64,000 bases of DNA from an uncultured Nitrososphaeraceae archaeon (GCA_963837175.1 CAWIMJ010000013.1:1-64000), one strand, 5' to 3'; counted from the first letter of the stretch, positions 29,291 through 35,652 are shown. Notes: a model not told the origin generated them from the letters alone. Made by a program: numbers and translations.

Positions 29291-30895
29291 TTAACCTATG
29301 CCAATAGATGCAAATGCCAAGTGCTTGAATTTTGACCTGTCGAGCATTCCCCGACCATCGTAAAGTGGGATTCCACCAAGATCAGCAGGTGTCAAAGTTC
29401 GATACTCTGGATGATCTGCAATAAGCATTATTAAATCTGTACCTTGTATAGCTTCATTTAGATTTGATGTCAGAATAATATTATTCTGTTTTCCTGATAA
29501 AGCAGGATCATTAATTACCAAAGGATCATGGACACGAATCTCTTTTACTTTCATCCGTTTCTGAAATTCATCAATGACCTTATAAGTAGGTGATGAACGT
29601 GTATCTGAAACTCCCCCTCTAAAGGCAAGACCAAGTAAAGTGATAATAACTTCATCCATCCCCTTATTTACAAAACTTCTTTTTTTCAACTGTTCTCTTC
29701 CATGCTTTTTGATATTGTTCTTTTCTTCTTTTCCTTCTTCTAGTAATTCTATGGCCTGTTCTACACAATAAGCAGCCATAGAATCGTTGATATTTCTGCT
29801 CATGCGAGTAATACTACAATCGATCTTCATCCTATCTGCAGTATGAAGTATAAATTGGGGATAAATAGGTATACATGCACCGCCAACACCTACACCTGGT
29901 TTATGGATATGGCAGAATGGTTGGGAGTTTGCCGCGTTCCTTGCTTCCCAAAAATCAACACCTACTTTTTCACAGAATTTTGCAAGTTCATTTGCAAGAG
30001 CAATATTTACATCCCGATATACTCCTTCAAGCAGCTTTTCGGTTTCAGCAGTTCTTATACTACTCATTGCTATTACACCTTTCTTAAATATTATAGAGTA
30101 TATCCTGACCCCTATATTGATACTTCTAACACCAGTTCCTGAGACTATTGCTGGATATCTCTGCTCGATATCTTCTATCGCCCTTCCTTCATAGATTCGT
30201 TCCGGATTGTATATCATGTAAAAGTCTGTTTCGGCTTTAAAACCACTTTCTTTCTCTAGAATTGGTAATACGATCTCTTCAGTTGTTCCCGGAGGAACAC
30301 TAGGATTTAGAGCTACAACATCAAACTTTTTCAATCCTTTTCCAATTGATGTTGCTACATCCTTTATCGCTGTCAAATCCGCTGATCCATTTGCAGCTAA
30401 CACTGGTACGCAAATCATTTTAAAATACGAATCTAAAGATGCTTTTACTAAGTCTTCATATATCTTGAAACGATTGTCCTCTATACCCTTTGTAAATGCC
30501 TCATTTACCCCTGGTTCTAGTTGGAGATGCGTCTTTCCTATTCTTGCATTTTTTAATACCTTTGAAGATTTATCGACTCCTATAACATGTGCTCCTCGTC
30601 GAAGCCATACAGAAGCTAGTGGAGCACCAATATGTCCTAAACCATAAACTGCTATTTTAAAGGCACCAGATTTTATTTTCTTTTCGATATCTTTTGGGCT
30701 GTATCCATATTCATAACCATAATTGTTGTTATGGTTATTGTTATTGACATCACTACTGCTTCTGGCACTATTGTTATTAACAATAATATTATTGGTATGA
30801 TCACCAGTTTTATTGATATCAGAGTTAGTAGTGGTAATATTAAAAGTAGTATTAGAAGAATATAGAGTTGGTTTCATACGACTTTTAGTTTTCAT
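29291..30895 (-). CDS. UDP-sugar (UDP-GlcNAc/ManNAc-type) dehydrogenase
   Basis: GLGHIG, SVPPGTT, PERI, KLLEGVYRDVNIALANE, GGACIP, DTRSSP; the N-terminal Asn-rich extension makes the start uncertain. Confidence 0.9.
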   Translation of the reverse strand: MKTKSRMKPTLYSSNTTFNITTTNSDINKTGDHTNNIIVNNNSARSSSDVNNNNHNNNYGYEYGYSPKDIEKKIKSGAFKIAVYGLGHIGAPLASVWLRRGAHVIGVDKSSKVLKNARIGKTHLQLEPGVNEAFTKGIEDNRFKIYEDLVKASLDSYFKMICVPVLAANGSADLTAIKDVATSIGKGLKKFDVVALNPSVPPGTTEEIVLPILEKESGFKAETDFYMIYNPERIYEGRAIEDIEQRYPAIVSGTGVRSINIGVRIYSIIFKKGVIAMSSIRTAETEKLLEGVYRDVNIALANELAKFCEKVGVDFWEARNAANSQPFCHIHKPGVGVGGACIPIYPQFILHTADRMKIDCSITRMSRNINDSMAAYCVEQAIELLEEGKEEKNNIKKHGREQLKKRSFVNKGMDEVIITLLGLAFRGGVSDTRSSPTYKVIDEFQKRMKVKEIRVHDPLVINDPALSGKQNNIILTSNLNEAIQGTDLIMLIADHPEYRTLTPADLGGIPLYDGRGMLDRSKFKHLAFASIGIG

Positions 30896-31419
30896 AAGAT
30901 GTATTTTATTATTATATTTATATTATATATCATGCGCTTGAACGTTGTTCTTTTATTTATTGCATGTAAATGAGATTTGAATTATCTTTATATATTATAC
31001 TCTTTCCCAATTGGAATTATATTATGCCTCAATAAGCTGAATAAGACTAATAGATAATATAATTACATTATAGCTAATGCAATCGGCAATAATTGTTCAT
31101 ATTAGATATCATCTTATTATCTAGTGTTTATAGTAACGATCTTTTAAGATGTTACATTTCTTTGCAATAGGCAATAATATAGTTATTCTTTTGTAACTGA
31201 GGATAGTAATATACAAGTTTATGGTTTGTTCAGAGCAGCCTAATAAGTGAAGTTGCATAAGAAAAGGATATGTACTTTCAACCACATCATAGTTTATGGA
31301 TTAATTTTATGTGAGTAATATATATCTGTTCTAAAATTATGTTGATAAGTATTATATAATAAAATAATATATATAAATGAAGTTAAGGTTATTATACTCT
31401 TCTTACAAATTGATTTAAC

Positions 31420-31435
31420 AAAAAAGACTAAATAT
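31420..31435 (+). promoter_or_regulatory. Putative BRE/TATA element driving the candidate ncRNA
   Basis: Purine run AAAAAAG followed by CTAAATAT, about 20-27 bp upstream of 31455. Confidence 0.4.
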
Positions 31436-31454
31436 CCTCCATACACATAAATAT

Positions 31455-31692
31455 TGTTCGATTAGCCGAAAGAGAAGAATGATACATCATATAGGTCTAG
31501 GTTGCAAGTAAAGGCTTGCAACTCCCACGGGAATGATGATATGTCGTCTTAGGCTAGTAGGTTAACCTGTATTCTTAAATGATGCAGGGGAGTCCAAGTC
31601 TAAGTTGATAAGAGTATACCACAGGGCTGCTTTGGAACTTATCGTAGTAGTCTTGCAGGGAAAACTACATGTCTTCGAATGCTAGTCGAACA
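31455..31692 (+). ncRNA. Candidate structured non-coding RNA (~240 nt), family unknown
   Basis: Terminal helix TGTTCGATTAGC/GCTAGTCGAACA, at least five internal stems, G-U pairs favouring the + strand, locally raised GC, no ORF. Confidence 0.6.
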
Positions 31693-31958
31693 TTACTTTT
31701 CTTATACTTATTCAATATATCATTACGCCTTAGTACAAAGGATGAGTTTTTGCTGATAGTTTATCCTTCCTCTCCTTTTGTTTTCTGGGTTGTGCCTATA
31801 AACTATTCATTGTATTATTATTTTATTATTTTATTATTTTTCGTTAATATTGCAAAATCGTATTAATTATAATACCGAAGTAATTACATTACTGTATATT
31901 ATTACATTTTATTTCCTGTGCGTTTTCCTTTTTATCTGTAGTTGGAATGCCTGTTTTG

Positions 31959-32189
31959 TTAGGTTATTAAGGCGGCACCAAACTTGCGATACAGAGTTTT
32001 TCCTTCCCTTGTAACTAAAAAAATTCTATTCGGTGGAATAATTTCAAAATTCTCCGAAAGCTTTAAGAATTCTGGCAACGACACCTTAATGATAGAGTTA
32101 AATTCGCGATAGCTTACTGAATAGAGGCCAGCATTATCTGCATACAAAGCTTTACTAAAAATTTCTTTGAGTCGACCTTTCCGCGTCAT
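31959..32189 (-). CDS. DUF504-like small protein
   Basis: Basic 76-aa ORF with Y-R and IP.NRI motifs. Confidence 0.6.
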   Translation of the reverse strand: MTRKGRLKEIFSKALYADNAGLYSVSYREFNSIIKVSLPEFLKLSENFEIIPPNRIFLVTREGKTLYRKFGAALIT

Positions 32190-32922
32190 GTTTTAAATTT
32201 TATTATCGTTTCTTCCATTGCGAATGTTGTCGACATTATCTTAATTATAATATTAGTATATAGGTTCATAACATGTATTGACTTGACATAATATATAAAA
32301 TTTCATAGAGGGCGCATAAAATCTTGTATATGAAGTATGATAGTATATTTAAAAACAACTTTTTTTCTACTGCTCATGCCAATACCCAATGAGATATCGA
32401 ATCCAAAAACACTTATGTATTGGCAAACCTAAATGGAAGGCATATGTTAGATTTGGTATACTTACGCTTCTGATGGATAACTATCAGATATGTAAATTAT
32501 ATGAAACAAAATCAATCTACTTCTTCATAGTTTTTCTCTGTATCTATAGGTAAGGTAAACTAATTACACAATAGATTAACATATGGTTATGATCTCCCCA
32601 CTGTGTAGTAGAGAAATGAAATGATTAGATATACTATTTTTCGTTTCAAAGCTTGGTAATCTGAATTGGCTACCTTGAATAACCTGGCCTATATCTTATA
32701 TTGCCGTTGTCATTATGCTAGCATAAAACCATTTTATAGGTATGGCAGACAATCATAGACTTTATATCTGTTGGTCATTCTATCCCAGGAATTAGTATTA
32801 TATACTAGAAATGATATCATATTAATGATTTAGTAATACTTTTAGTACTGCTTAATAATAAAATATTATATATAGTATGTAGAGCTAGCTTTTTAAACTA
32901 AAATCTTCCAATAAAGAAAGGG

Positions 32923-35652
32923 ATGGCAGGAGTAACCGAGTTTAATGACTCGAAAGAGAACTTAATCATGAATATTAAAAAAAGAGACGGCAGAGTTGTT
33001 AGTTTTACGCATTCTAAGATATCAAATGCAATTTACAAAGCGCTTGTAGTGACTGGTAAGCCAGATTATCCATTAGCAGAAAGGTTGGCAAATAACGTGG
33101 TACAGAAAATGGTTCAGAGTGGTTACGGATTGAGTGGAAAAGTTGCAATCGCAAGTGTTGAAGATGTACAAGATATGGTAGAGTCTATCCTCATCGAACA
33201 AGGATTGTCTGAAACGGCTAAGGCATACATCTTGTATAGGCATGAGAGGCGCAAAGTTAGAGATGAGAAGATGAGAGTTCTAAACAAGAAGGTGCTTGAT
33301 GAAGTTGACAAGGTATTTGATATTAATTCCCTTAGAGTTTTAGCTGCACGTTATTTGTTACGAGATAACAACGGCGAGATTATAGAAGGTCCAAAACAGA
33401 TGTTTGAAAGAGTAGCAATTCTGGTTGCACTTGCGGATATATTGCATGATTCTCAATTGTTCAATTTAGCAGGTGGACATAACCAAAATATCGAAGAAGC
33501 AGAGAAATATTATGCGAAAATGGATGACTTTGATCTAAAATTAAAGATAGGAGATTACTATCTGAACAAATATCACTTTGAATGTCTTATTCGACACTAT
33601 GTGTATCTAGCAAAGATGGGTTGTATGAAAGTTGGCTTTAAGGAACTACTTCGAATGATGGCTGAAAGCAAGTTAAGCGTATACGAAGAGAGAATCAAAG
33701 AATACTATAATTTAATGGTATCAAGAGATTTTCTACCGAATACACCAACATTGATGAATGCAGGTGCAAGGCTTGGTCAATTGTCAGCTTGTTTTGTTCT
33801 TGATATGTCAGACGACATGTATAAGATCATGCAATCATCAACTGATGCAGCCATGATTTTCAAATCAGGTGGAGGTGTTGGAATAAATTATTCTGACCTA
33901 AGACCAGAAGGAGATATCGTTGCCTCTACATCTGGCGTTGCATCAGGCCCAACCTCTTTTATGAGAATCATTGATACTATAACCGATGTAGTAAAACAAG
34001 GCGGAAAGAGGCGTGGCGCAAATATGGGTATATTAGAGGCATGGCATCCAGATATTGAAAAGTTTGTGACGGCCAAGACAAAACCTGGCGTATTCGAGAA
34101 CTTTAATGTCAGTGTTGGGGTCTGGGAAGATTTTTGGAAGTCTCTTGTAAATAAGGATAACCACAAGTATACATTACGTAATCCGAGAACTCATGAGCCT
34201 ATAAAGCAGATCGATTCCTATCAATTAATGGATCTGATAGCATTTAGCGCATGGAAAAGTGCGGAACCAGGTGTTATCTTCTTTGATAATATTAACAAAT
34301 ACAATCCATGTATAAATGCAAAGGGCGGACCTTTGCGTGCAACAAACCCCTGCGGTGAACAATCGTTATATCCTTATGAATCATGTAATCTAGGTTCGAT
34401 AAATCTTGCAAATTTTGTAAAGCGCAAGGCAGATGGAATGTTTGAATTTGATTGGCAGAAATATGAGCAGGCAATAAGGGTGTCATCCAGATTCTTAGAT
34501 AATATTATAGATATGAATAAGTATCCAGTGGAAGAAATTGATATCAATACAAAACTGACAAGAAGAATAGGCCTTGGTATAATGGGTATCGCTGACTTGC
34601 TATTCCTACTTAGAATTCCATATGATTCAAATGATGGCTATGAATTCATGTACAAACTGGCAGAAGCAGTATCATACTATAGTATGGAAGAAAGTGTTGC
34701 TATTGCAAAGGTAAGAGGACCATTTCCCTTATTCAAAGAGACAGATTATGTAAAGGGTAAGATACCTATCTCAGGTTATTATGAGTTACCAACAGAAACA
34801 CATGCATACAATTGGGATTCCTTAATCAAAAAAATTCAAAAACATGGAATACGAAACTCTTGGACATCTACTATTGCTCCCACCGGTACATTATCTATGA
34901 TTGCAGATACTTCAAATGGTGTTGAACCGATGTTTGCGTTAGTTTTCGAGAAACGCGTGACAGTTGGTAGGTTCTTCTATACTAATAGGATTTTTGAAAA
35001 TGTGTTGAAGGAAAACGGCCTTTACACTGATGAAATACTTGCAAAAGTTGCGAATAATTATGGTTCAGTTCGTGGTTTGTCTGAAATTCCAGAATGGATT
35101 CAGAAAACGTTTGTTACTGCAATAGATATACACTGGACTGATCATATAATGGCGCAGGCCGTATGGCAGAAATGGATTGGGAATGCCATTGCAAAAACAA
35201 TCAATATGCCAGGAGACGTCACTGCAGAAGATGTAAAGTATGCATATCTACTGTCACATGAACTTGGATTAAAAGGAGTTACAGTATACAGAGATGGCTC
35301 ACGACATGAACAAGTTCTCCATATCACTGGTAATGAAACAAAGGAAAAGAAATTCATTACAAGGCCAAGCAAATATGCCGTAGACTATATTCGTGCAAAC
35401 GTTAAAGAATTATATGTCAGAGAACAAATAGAAAAAATCTTTGAACAAACCAAGATCGAAAATGAAGAAGAAATACCAACAGAAACAATTTCAACATCCA
35501 TACTACTGGATACGCCTACCAAGACAACACACACACCCTTGCTGGAATCAAATGAGGATAATACCTGTCCATCATGCAAAGCGAGATTAATAATCACTGA
35601 AGGTTGCAATTTGTGTATAGAATGCGGCTTTAGTAGCTGCATTTCAGGCTGA
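32923..35652 (+). CDS. nrdJ: Class II (adenosylcobalamin-dependent) ribonucleotide reductase with an N-terminal ATP cone
   Basis: IKKRDGR cone, PNTPTLMNAG, SACFV, TNPCGEQ, CNLGSINL, IAPTGT, YRDGSR, C-terminal CPSC/CIECG. Confidence 0.95.
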   Translation: MAGVTEFNDSKENLIMNIKKRDGRVVSFTHSKISNAIYKALVVTGKPDYPLAERLANNVVQKMVQSGYGLSGKVAIASVEDVQDMVESILIEQGLSETAKAYILYRHERRKVRDEKMRVLNKKVLDEVDKVFDINSLRVLAARYLLRDNNGEIIEGPKQMFERVAILVALADILHDSQLFNLAGGHNQNIEEAEKYYAKMDDFDLKLKIGDYYLNKYHFECLIRHYVYLAKMGCMKVGFKELLRMMAESKLSVYEERIKEYYNLMVSRDFLPNTPTLMNAGARLGQLSACFVLDMSDDMYKIMQSSTDAAMIFKSGGGVGINYSDLRPEGDIVASTSGVASGPTSFMRIIDTITDVVKQGGKRRGANMGILEAWHPDIEKFVTAKTKPGVFENFNVSVGVWEDFWKSLVNKDNHKYTLRNPRTHEPIKQIDSYQLMDLIAFSAWKSAEPGVIFFDNINKYNPCINAKGGPLRATNPCGEQSLYPYESCNLGSINLANFVKRKADGMFEFDWQKYEQAIRVSSRFLDNIIDMNKYPVEEIDINTKLTRRIGLGIMGIADLLFLLRIPYDSNDGYEFMYKLAEAVSYYSMEESVAIAKVRGPFPLFKETDYVKGKIPISGYYELPTETHAYNWDSLIKKIQKHGIRNSWTSTIAPTGTLSMIADTSNGVEPMFALVFEKRVTVGRFFYTNRIFENVLKENGLYTDEILAKVANNYGSVRGLSEIPEWIQKTFVTAIDIHWTDHIMAQAVWQKWIGNAIAKTINMPGDVTAEDVKYAYLLSHELGLKGVTVYRDGSRHEQVLHITGNETKEKKFITRPSKYAVDYIRANVKELYVREQIEKIFEQTKIENEEEIPTETISTSILLDTPTKTTHTPLLESNEDNTCPSCKARLIITEGCNLCIECGFSSCISG

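Follow-up and report, generated by a model that had tools for sequence, protein, structure and literature searches.

What does a folded island of some 240 nucleotides represent in an otherwise AT-rich gap of an archaeal genome, and in which form does its product exist? The island occupies positions 31455–31692 of the window, by which we mean the whole analysed stretch of 64,000 nucleotides from an uncultured Nitrososphaeraceae archaeon. An earlier note had read it as an independently transcribed, structured non-coding RNA of an undescribed kind. This core reading holds, and the RNA is neither a MITE nor a member of a known Rfam family. What had been thought to be a linear RNA of about 240 nt is, judging from a joint in RNA contigs, most likely a circle of 207 nt in its mature form. 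We regard it as very probable that the locus is a stand-alone gene and that its product is a circular, highly structured non-coding RNA.

A strand-specific fold in a gap between genes

The G+C content of 31455–31692 is 0.40–0.45 versus 0.15–0.28 in the flanks, and only short open reading frames overlap it, which bears out the description of a GC island in an ORF-free, AT-rich gap. The upstream neighbour is a divergently oriented gene for UDP-glucose dehydrogenase (29291–30895, −). Downstream lies a frame of 909 amino acids (32923–35652, +) that had been named nrdJ, 1.2 kb away; it does encode a ribonucleotide reductase with an ATP cone, but no link between this gene and the RNA was found, and other copies of the RNA lie in unrelated neighbourhoods. 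The gene once called DUF504-like corresponds to a 76-residue frame (31959–32189, −) for which Pfam has no match at E≤0.01; whether it encodes a small orphan protein or no gene at all, the DUF504 assignment is not confirmed. AT-only low-complexity repeats of the TATTATTTTATT type are found on either side of the RNA gene, at 31347–31374 and 31809–31842. Both the TATA-like box upstream and the T tract downstream, already pointed out earlier, are present (Table 1). Among the homologs inspected, a TATA-like box after an A-rich tract ends 20–24 nt upstream of the closing helix, and T tracts occur 3' of this helix in many homologs.

The plus strand of 31455–31692 folds with a minimum free energy of −80.4 kcal/mol and a z-score of −5.35, and none of 200 dinucleotide shuffles was as good, as the reading of a structured RNA had led one to expect; the minus strand reaches −2.73. 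The folding signal is strand-specific. A scan of the whole 64-kb window against Rfam 15 gave no match at gathering score, rRNA models included, again in agreement with the original reading, and a permissive scan of 31300–31850 returned nothing beyond two C/D snoRNA matches with E>6. ARAGORN found no tRNA genes in the window. Read by eye only, the internal loops hold no G-A/A-G signature of a K-turn.

Is this fold maintained by selection? From 19 homologs aligned with MAFFT, RNAalifold predicts 61 consensus pairs, and compensatory changes occur in 37 of them. In a larger set of 45 homologs, from which unpublished loci were left out and which was aligned to the covariance model and is hence biased toward the structure, 91.3% of the cells are in standard pairs versus 29–39% when the partners are slid by one to three columns. 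Changes on both sides occur in 62 of 67 pairs, and no shuffle out of 500 reached the observed values. The result from the 19 homologs, which is independent of the model alignment, points the same way.

The individual helices contribute to this signal in different ways. The outer helix (helix 1) is 94.4% paired, and all ten counted pairs have changed on both sides, G-U pairs included, while its sequence varies freely; its closing pair 31466–31681 is standard in 36/45 homologs. The terminal pairing proposed in the earlier note, together with its CGAA/TTCG extension, thus covaries. Within arm P3, pairing reaches 86.6% in helix 3 and 92.9% in helix 4, with both-side changes in 14/15 pairs. Helices 5–7 of P4 and P5 reach 91.4%, 73.3% and 94.5%, and 18 of 18 pairs have changed on both sides. 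Values of 94.1%, 100% and 90.8% apply to helices 9–11 of P6. The pseudoknot that had been suggested between TCCAAG and TTTGGA is 77.3% paired, with four of its six pairs changed on both sides. Long unpaired stretches are near-invariant. The inner stems that had been drawn fared unevenly: CATCAT/ATGATG, GGTTGCAAG/CTTGCAACT and CCTGTATT/GATGCAGG are backed by covariation, whereas AAGA/TCTT (61% paired), GATAAG/CTTATC (70%) and GTAGT/ACTAC (52–61%) fail, with three to eight double-changed cells each among the 45 homologs; their bases belong to other covarying helices.

As a side observation, arm P4 of the window copy carries an A-A mispair (31541/31611) and a U-U mispair (31547/31605). Contigs of an expressed relative read T instead of A at 31541 and A instead of T at 31605; each change restores a standard pair.

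Table 1 Features of the RNA gene, by position in the window
Feature	Position	Strand	Remark
BRE-like A-rich tract and TATA-like box	31420–31435 (TAAATAT 31429–31435)	+	putative promoter, ~20 nt upstream of closing helix
Outer helix h ('P1'), 5' strand	31455–31466	+	pairs with 31681–31692; would remain in 5' leader after cutting
BHB central 4-bp helix, 5' strand CGAA	31467–31470	+	pairs with UUCG 31674–31677
5' three-base bulge AGA	31471–31473	+	cut between 31472 and 31473
Excised and ligated circular RNA, 207 nt	31473–31679	+	three 237-nt contigs with joint
Junction helix, 3' strand in circle, GAAGA	31474–31478	+	pairs with 31672–31676 across ligation site
Arm P3	31486–31537	+	base 31486–90/31533–37, apical hairpin 31500–09/31514–23, invariant loop region GUAAAGG
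Arm P4	31541–31611	+	31541–53/31599–611; encloses conserved internal loop and hairpin P5 (31567–71/31583–87)
Pseudoknot, 5' strand UCCAAG	31593–31598	+	in P4 internal loop; partner 31631–31636
Arm P6	31613–31666	+	31613–15/31664–66, 31619–20/31659–60, 31622–30/31647–55; apical loop 31631–36 is pseudoknot 3' strand
UCUUCG	31672–31677	+	31674–77 is BHB 3' strand in precursor; 31672–76 is junction helix 5' strand in circle
3' three-base bulge AAU	31678–31680	+	cut between 31679 and 31680
Outer helix h ('P1'), 3' strand	31681–31692	+	would remain in 3' trailer
T-rich tract TTTTCTT	31697–31703	+	putative terminator

The terminal stem and a joint in soil RNA

What had been taken for a plain terminal stem with a CGAA/TTCG extension is very probably a bulge-helix-bulge (BHB) processing site, and the circular product was overlooked. 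The central helix has all four pairs in 43/45 homologs (helix 2, 99% paired), and its CAAA/UUUG and CAGG/CCUG variants are compensatory. The 5' bulge reads A-N-A in 42/45; of the other three, two are divergent paralogs with UUC and one has a gap at the middle position. For the 3' bulge, A-R-N is found in 43/45. On the inner side the motif is bounded by a weak helix h', made of G31474–C31673 in 43/44 and one A-U pair in 29/45, and on the outer side by helix h of 10–12 bp; relaxed BHB motifs with one weak helix are known (PMC4090602).

How does this site compare with the one in tRNA? The canonical tRNA intron site lies between positions 37 and 38. The motif that the archaeal splicing endonuclease recognises is a 4-bp helix with a 3-nt bulge on either side, and this helix takes in the first two bases of the anticodon (PMC4090602). 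Combined with the intron position, this geometry implies that tRNA is also cut after the second bulge base. The ends that are joined in the RNA described here likewise fall after the second base of each BHB bulge, and the strand arrangement is the same as in the tRNA motif. The genome contains two genes with the endonuclease domain PF01974, at G000:C41:35700-35930 (+) and G000:C50:224579-224833 (−), in frames of 193 and 216 amino acids; two such genes would presumably fit a two-subunit endonuclease of broad specificity. There is one gene for an RtcB ligase (PF01139) in the genome, at C37:15341-16651 on the same contig as the SRP RNA.

Contigs of four soil metatranscriptome runs were mapped onto 30300–33300. 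Three runs from three studies (X16, X17 and X19) contain the joint 31679→31473, where the contig goes back 207 positions. Each of them yielded one 237-nt contig, that is 207 nt plus a 30-base overlap, with start points at 31504, 31473 and 31489, respectively; such an overlap is what an assembler would deliver for a circular template. The window locus and the 45 genomic homologs are all collinear and free of tandem copies, which would place the joint in the RNA. The predicted rings of the homologs measure 194–217 nt. As these lengths do not keep to multiples of three and the window ring has stop codons in all three frames, the ring is taken to be non-coding. From the fourth run, X15, came a contig of 227 nt that belongs to the type of the copies on contigs C9 and C34 and equals their predicted ring of 197 nt plus 30; the single letter that it shows ahead of the first ring base agrees with the joint and not with the precursor, a thin support.

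These contigs show that the joined form exists and say nothing of its share relative to the linear form, of the strand or of the ends. All full-length RNA contigs recovered are circular. They differ from the window copy at 9–11 of 207 positions, hence they stem from close relatives in those soils, and it is these relatives that are seen to be expressed. The flanks 30603–31410 and 31714–32925 are covered by no contig in the four RNA runs, which is not a sign of silence. Contig depths, which are unfit for ranking genes, are 15–58.7 for the circular contigs, 180–450 for short shared pieces and 5–6.5 for the reductase gene; the highest values belong to short contigs of the C9/C34 sequence type.

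Does the ring differ from its precursor in more than topology? A helix that spans the ligation site, the junction helix, is 78.8% paired, and three of its pairs have changed on both sides. Two homologs, the most distant ones, have exchanged every one of the five pairs for another complementary pair, and in one of them the helix is nine pairs long. One position is mispaired in 14/45, and a sixth pair is mostly unpaired. The bases at the joint (G31677, A31678, A31679 and A31473) give a G-A-R-A loop in 43/45 homologs. The circular minimum-free-energy fold of the window ring holds the junction hairpin, with a z-score of −3.44 against 200 shuffles. Because it covaries, appears in the circular fold and is kept linearly by paralogs without a BHB motif, we infer that the junction helix belongs to the mature fold, which circularisation would complete in the main types.

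Spread of the family and its paralogs

A BLAST search of the same genome found two further copies, on C9 and C34, which are ~73% identical to the window copy, and matches were obtained in 20/36 genomes of the same taxonomic family. With a covariance model built from the MAFFT alignment of 19 homologs, the RNA family is detected in 68/151 sampled genomes of the archaeal family (66/149 without the two unpublished genomes G063 and G101) and in 14/18 genera, with 1–11 matches per genome and more than 140 matches listed in total. Within one genus, three genomes that consist of a single contig have one copy apiece. The model finds no match in the remaining 83/151 sampled genomes, with 0/21 in each of three genera and 0/2 in a fourth. 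Its absence from three well-sampled genera means that the family is not essential for the group. The earlier assignment to the core genome is therefore only partly right: the window copy is syntenic within its genus, but the RNA is multi-copy, with five matches in this genome, and patchy in its presence. In a class-wide sample of 151 genomes, two additional matches came from beyond the family, one scoring 77 bits and the other 52; none of the 80 genomes of the largest other family in that sample had a match.

A 17-base pattern was used for searches as well. At least 16 of the loci that it gave in genome contigs were confirmed by the model, the other 64 of 80 listed being bacterial chance matches; among the matches listed, the confirmed loci come from Nitrososphaera sp., Nitrososphaeraceae archaeon, Ca. 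Nitrosopolaris sp. and Thermoproteota archaeon. The same pattern occurs without a match to the RNA model in at least ten genomes of Pyrinomonadaceae (L110, L112, L117, L123, L129, L132, L138, L139, L141, L143), where it presumably belongs to a conserved part of some bacterial gene unrelated to the RNA. The pattern was also found in 32 stretches of viral sequence, none of which matches the RNA model.

The source genome has five copies, three of which are 73% alike or closer. Apart from the window copy, they fall into two types. Type B comprises G000:C9:55864-56104 (−) and G000:C34:143707-143947 (−) (L002, L003), with the shorter ring mentioned above. These two share a common 540-bp unit at 96% identity that spans promoter, gene and trailer, which is a duplication of the whole transcription unit. 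Type C comprises G000:C23:8879-9127 (−) and G000:C35:1467-1716 (+) (L073, L074), which sit in a 2.2-kb stretch that is 98.7% identical between them. With four more in relatives of the genus (L078–L081), there are six type C paralogs in all; they score 77–88 bits and have a mean identity of 92% across five genomes of the genus. Their CGAA strand is missing, and with it the BHB motif, and a search for a shifted motif in these paralogs found none. The inner arms are kept, and so is the GAAGA/UCUUC helix, here in a linear arrangement that places it between closing stem and core. Type C could be a linear counterpart of the RNA or a decaying form of it.

Maturation, function and competing readings

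A route from gene to ring can be proposed. Transcription from the gene's own TATA-type promoter would give a precursor of ~250 nt, whose ends would form the helix of 10–12 bp that runs into the BHB motif, with CGAA/UUCG between the bulges AG^A and AA^U. A tRNA-splicing endonuclease would then cut after the second base of each bulge, at positions that the joint reveals, and an RtcB-type ligase would join 31679 to 31473 to close the 207-nt ring; the joint is seen in RNA, and the two enzymes are putative. Cutting would remove the CGAA strand and free UCUUC to pair with GAAGA across the joint. The ligated bases would thereby become a G-A-R-A tetraloop, and circularisation, to judge from the covariation, would complete the mature fold: a ring with three arms (P3, P4/P5 and P6), a loop-loop pseudoknot and near-invariant unpaired stretches.

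What might such a ring do? Multi-paralog RNAs include Y, vault and 6S. By analogy we would tentatively guess at a long-lived, trans-acting RNA that binds protein, either as the RNA part of an RNP or as its decoy; the guess stems from the diverged paralogs per genome, the constrained unpaired bases and a form that is proof against exonucleases. The ring might instead act as a ribozyme or as a sensor; for a selfish cassette the likelihood is lower. A bolder version, to which we give rather less credence, holds that the ring is the RNA core of a new RNP, or a ribozyme, of ammonia oxidisers among the soil archaea, in a dedicated multi-copy family whose active fold arises only after circularisation as an obligatory maturation switch. 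If true, circularisation would be such a switch and not a by-product or a mere stabiliser, with ligation building a GNRA-capped helix in place of the BHB helix.

The family is of interest for several reasons. Nitrososphaeraceae are major nitrifiers of soil, and very little is known of their non-coding RNAs. As an orphan RNA the family is large (~200 nt, three arms and a pseudoknot), with very strong covariation and occurrence in soil metatranscriptomes of several studies. It would be a clear natural example of a gene made only for a circular RNA by way of the tRNA-splicing machinery, and it raises the questions of what a dedicated circular RNA does in an archaeon, which proteins bind it and whether its function depends on its being circular. 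The compact cassette of promoter, BHB stem and cargo may also interest those who engineer circular RNAs. In the literature searched on circular RNA and BHB motifs in the Nitrososphaera group and in Thaumarchaeota, which takes in few subscription journals, no description of this RNA family was found.

Maturation by such a route has precedents; what is new, as far as the searched literature goes, is the cargo and its role. BHB-dependent circular RNAs of archaea have reportedly been described by Danan et al. 2012 and Schwarz et al. 2020. The archaeal BHB circles that derive from tRNA and rRNA introns and pre-rRNA intermediates share with the present ring the cut geometry and the same putative enzymes, EndA and RtcB. 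In their case a host gene for tRNA, rRNA or mRNA gives rise to the circle as a by-product or an intermediate; in the present case there is no host gene, and it is the circle itself that is conserved and covaries. A circular 23S rRNA is reported from this archaeal class (PMC12918454). For Thermoproteus tenax, Plagens et al. 2015 (PMC4731332) report a circular SRP RNA, in which the cargo is a permuted known RNA whose order is restored by circularisation; the cargo described here matches no known family, a normal SRP RNA is present, and there are several paralogs. Another likeness is to large orphan RNAs of bacteria. OLE, GOLLD, ROOL and raiA are long, intricately folded bacterial RNAs with strong covariation that lie in G+C-rich or structured intergenic islands and whose biochemical function is not known. 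They are in Rfam and, to our knowledge, linear, whereas the present RNA is archaeal, circular and absent from Rfam 15.

Could the circle be beside the point? One reading would make the linear multi-stem RNA of ~240 nt the functional form and the circle a minor product of processing or decay. The closing helix does covary, the six paralogs that lack the BHB motif have otherwise retained the fold, whence a linear version can exist, and the ratio of circle to linear form is not given by the contigs. For a plain closing stem, however, the bulge sizes, the 4-bp helix and the G-A-R-A bases would be superfluous, and yet they are kept in 43/45 homologs; the helix across the junction covaries although it can form only once the CGAA strand has been removed; and the full-length RNA contigs recovered are all circular. 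We therefore consider this reading unlikely. It is quite improbable, too, that we are dealing with a selfish or mobile BHB cassette, an orphan relative of archaeal introns whose ring is an excised 'intron' without a cellular role. Archaeal BHB introns of rRNA genes do form stable circles, the family is patchy across genera, many of the 1–11 matches per genome lie at contig ends as repeats do, and the duplicated unit of C9 and C34 would fit as well. But no host tRNA, rRNA or ORF is interrupted, every copy inspected has a promoter-like box, no gene for a transposase, integrase or homing endonuclease was found nearby, the window copy is syntenic in its genus, and the 32 viral stretches with the pattern include no member of the family. 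Moreover, the paralog types, ~73% alike, are each kept across genera with compensatory changes, which argues for selection on the fold and not for recent spread.

Two further readings were weighed. A circularly permuted gene for a known RNA, put back in order by circularisation as in Thermoproteus, has a precedent (PMC4731332), and the altered order would hide a family from Rfam models; the genome nevertheless has a standard RNase P RNA gene (174 bits, G000:C50:267429-267708 (−)) and a standard SRP RNA gene (110 bits, G000:C37:30136-30451 (+)), the permissive scan gave no partial Rfam match better than E 6, and one would not normally expect such an RNA to have a number of diverged paralogs in one genome. 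This makes the permuted gene highly improbable. Scarcely credible, finally, is a useful product in the form of the ligated leader and trailer, a hairpin with a 12-bp stem and a 7-base loop, with the ring discarded. BHB cutting normally joins the outer parts too, as in tRNA, and the closing helix is conserved as a structure, but sequence and covariation are constrained chiefly within the ring, which holds 53 of the 67 pairs counted and every long stretch without variation, and the sequence of the outer helix is free.

A number of more familiar identities were considered for the locus and rejected. Models for RNase P RNA (RF00373) and SRP RNA (RF01857) have no match there, their genes being elsewhere in the genome. 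An intron of a tRNA or rRNA was set aside, with no tRNA genes and no Rfam matches in the window and with a promoter-like box and a T tract as flanks. For a C/D box sRNA, only sub-threshold matches came up, scoring 14.2 and 11.9 bits where 37 and 35 would be required; the AUGAUGA present in the window copy is not retained in homologs, which have, for example, AUGCAUGG in L018 and L034, and a reading of the window ring finds no CUGA. As for a MITE or IS, only three of the five copies in this genome reach a likeness of 73% or more, what looks like an inverted repeat covaries in the manner of an RNA helix with G-U pairs, no transposase was found nearby, and the flanks differ between copies, with the single exception of the 540-bp duplication. 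A riboswitch or cis-regulatory leader of the reductase gene does not agree with the downstream genes at 38 loci, which differ and are often on the opposite strand.

The surroundings of these 38 loci (19 + 19) comprise 88 flanking frames (42 + 46), which encode varied housekeeping proteins. No transposase, integrase, homing-endonuclease or virus gene was found among the 88 frames, nor was there a recurring neighbour or partner gene. The window copy is syntenic with the UDP-glucose dehydrogenase gene in five loci of the genus. Two neighbours in other genomes catch the eye: a Clp1-type P-loop protein of the polynucleotide kinase family beside one copy (L049:2883-3254 (+)) and an NYN-domain nuclease beside another (L064:2567-3247 (−)). 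Both are single, non-recurring cases and probably due to chance.
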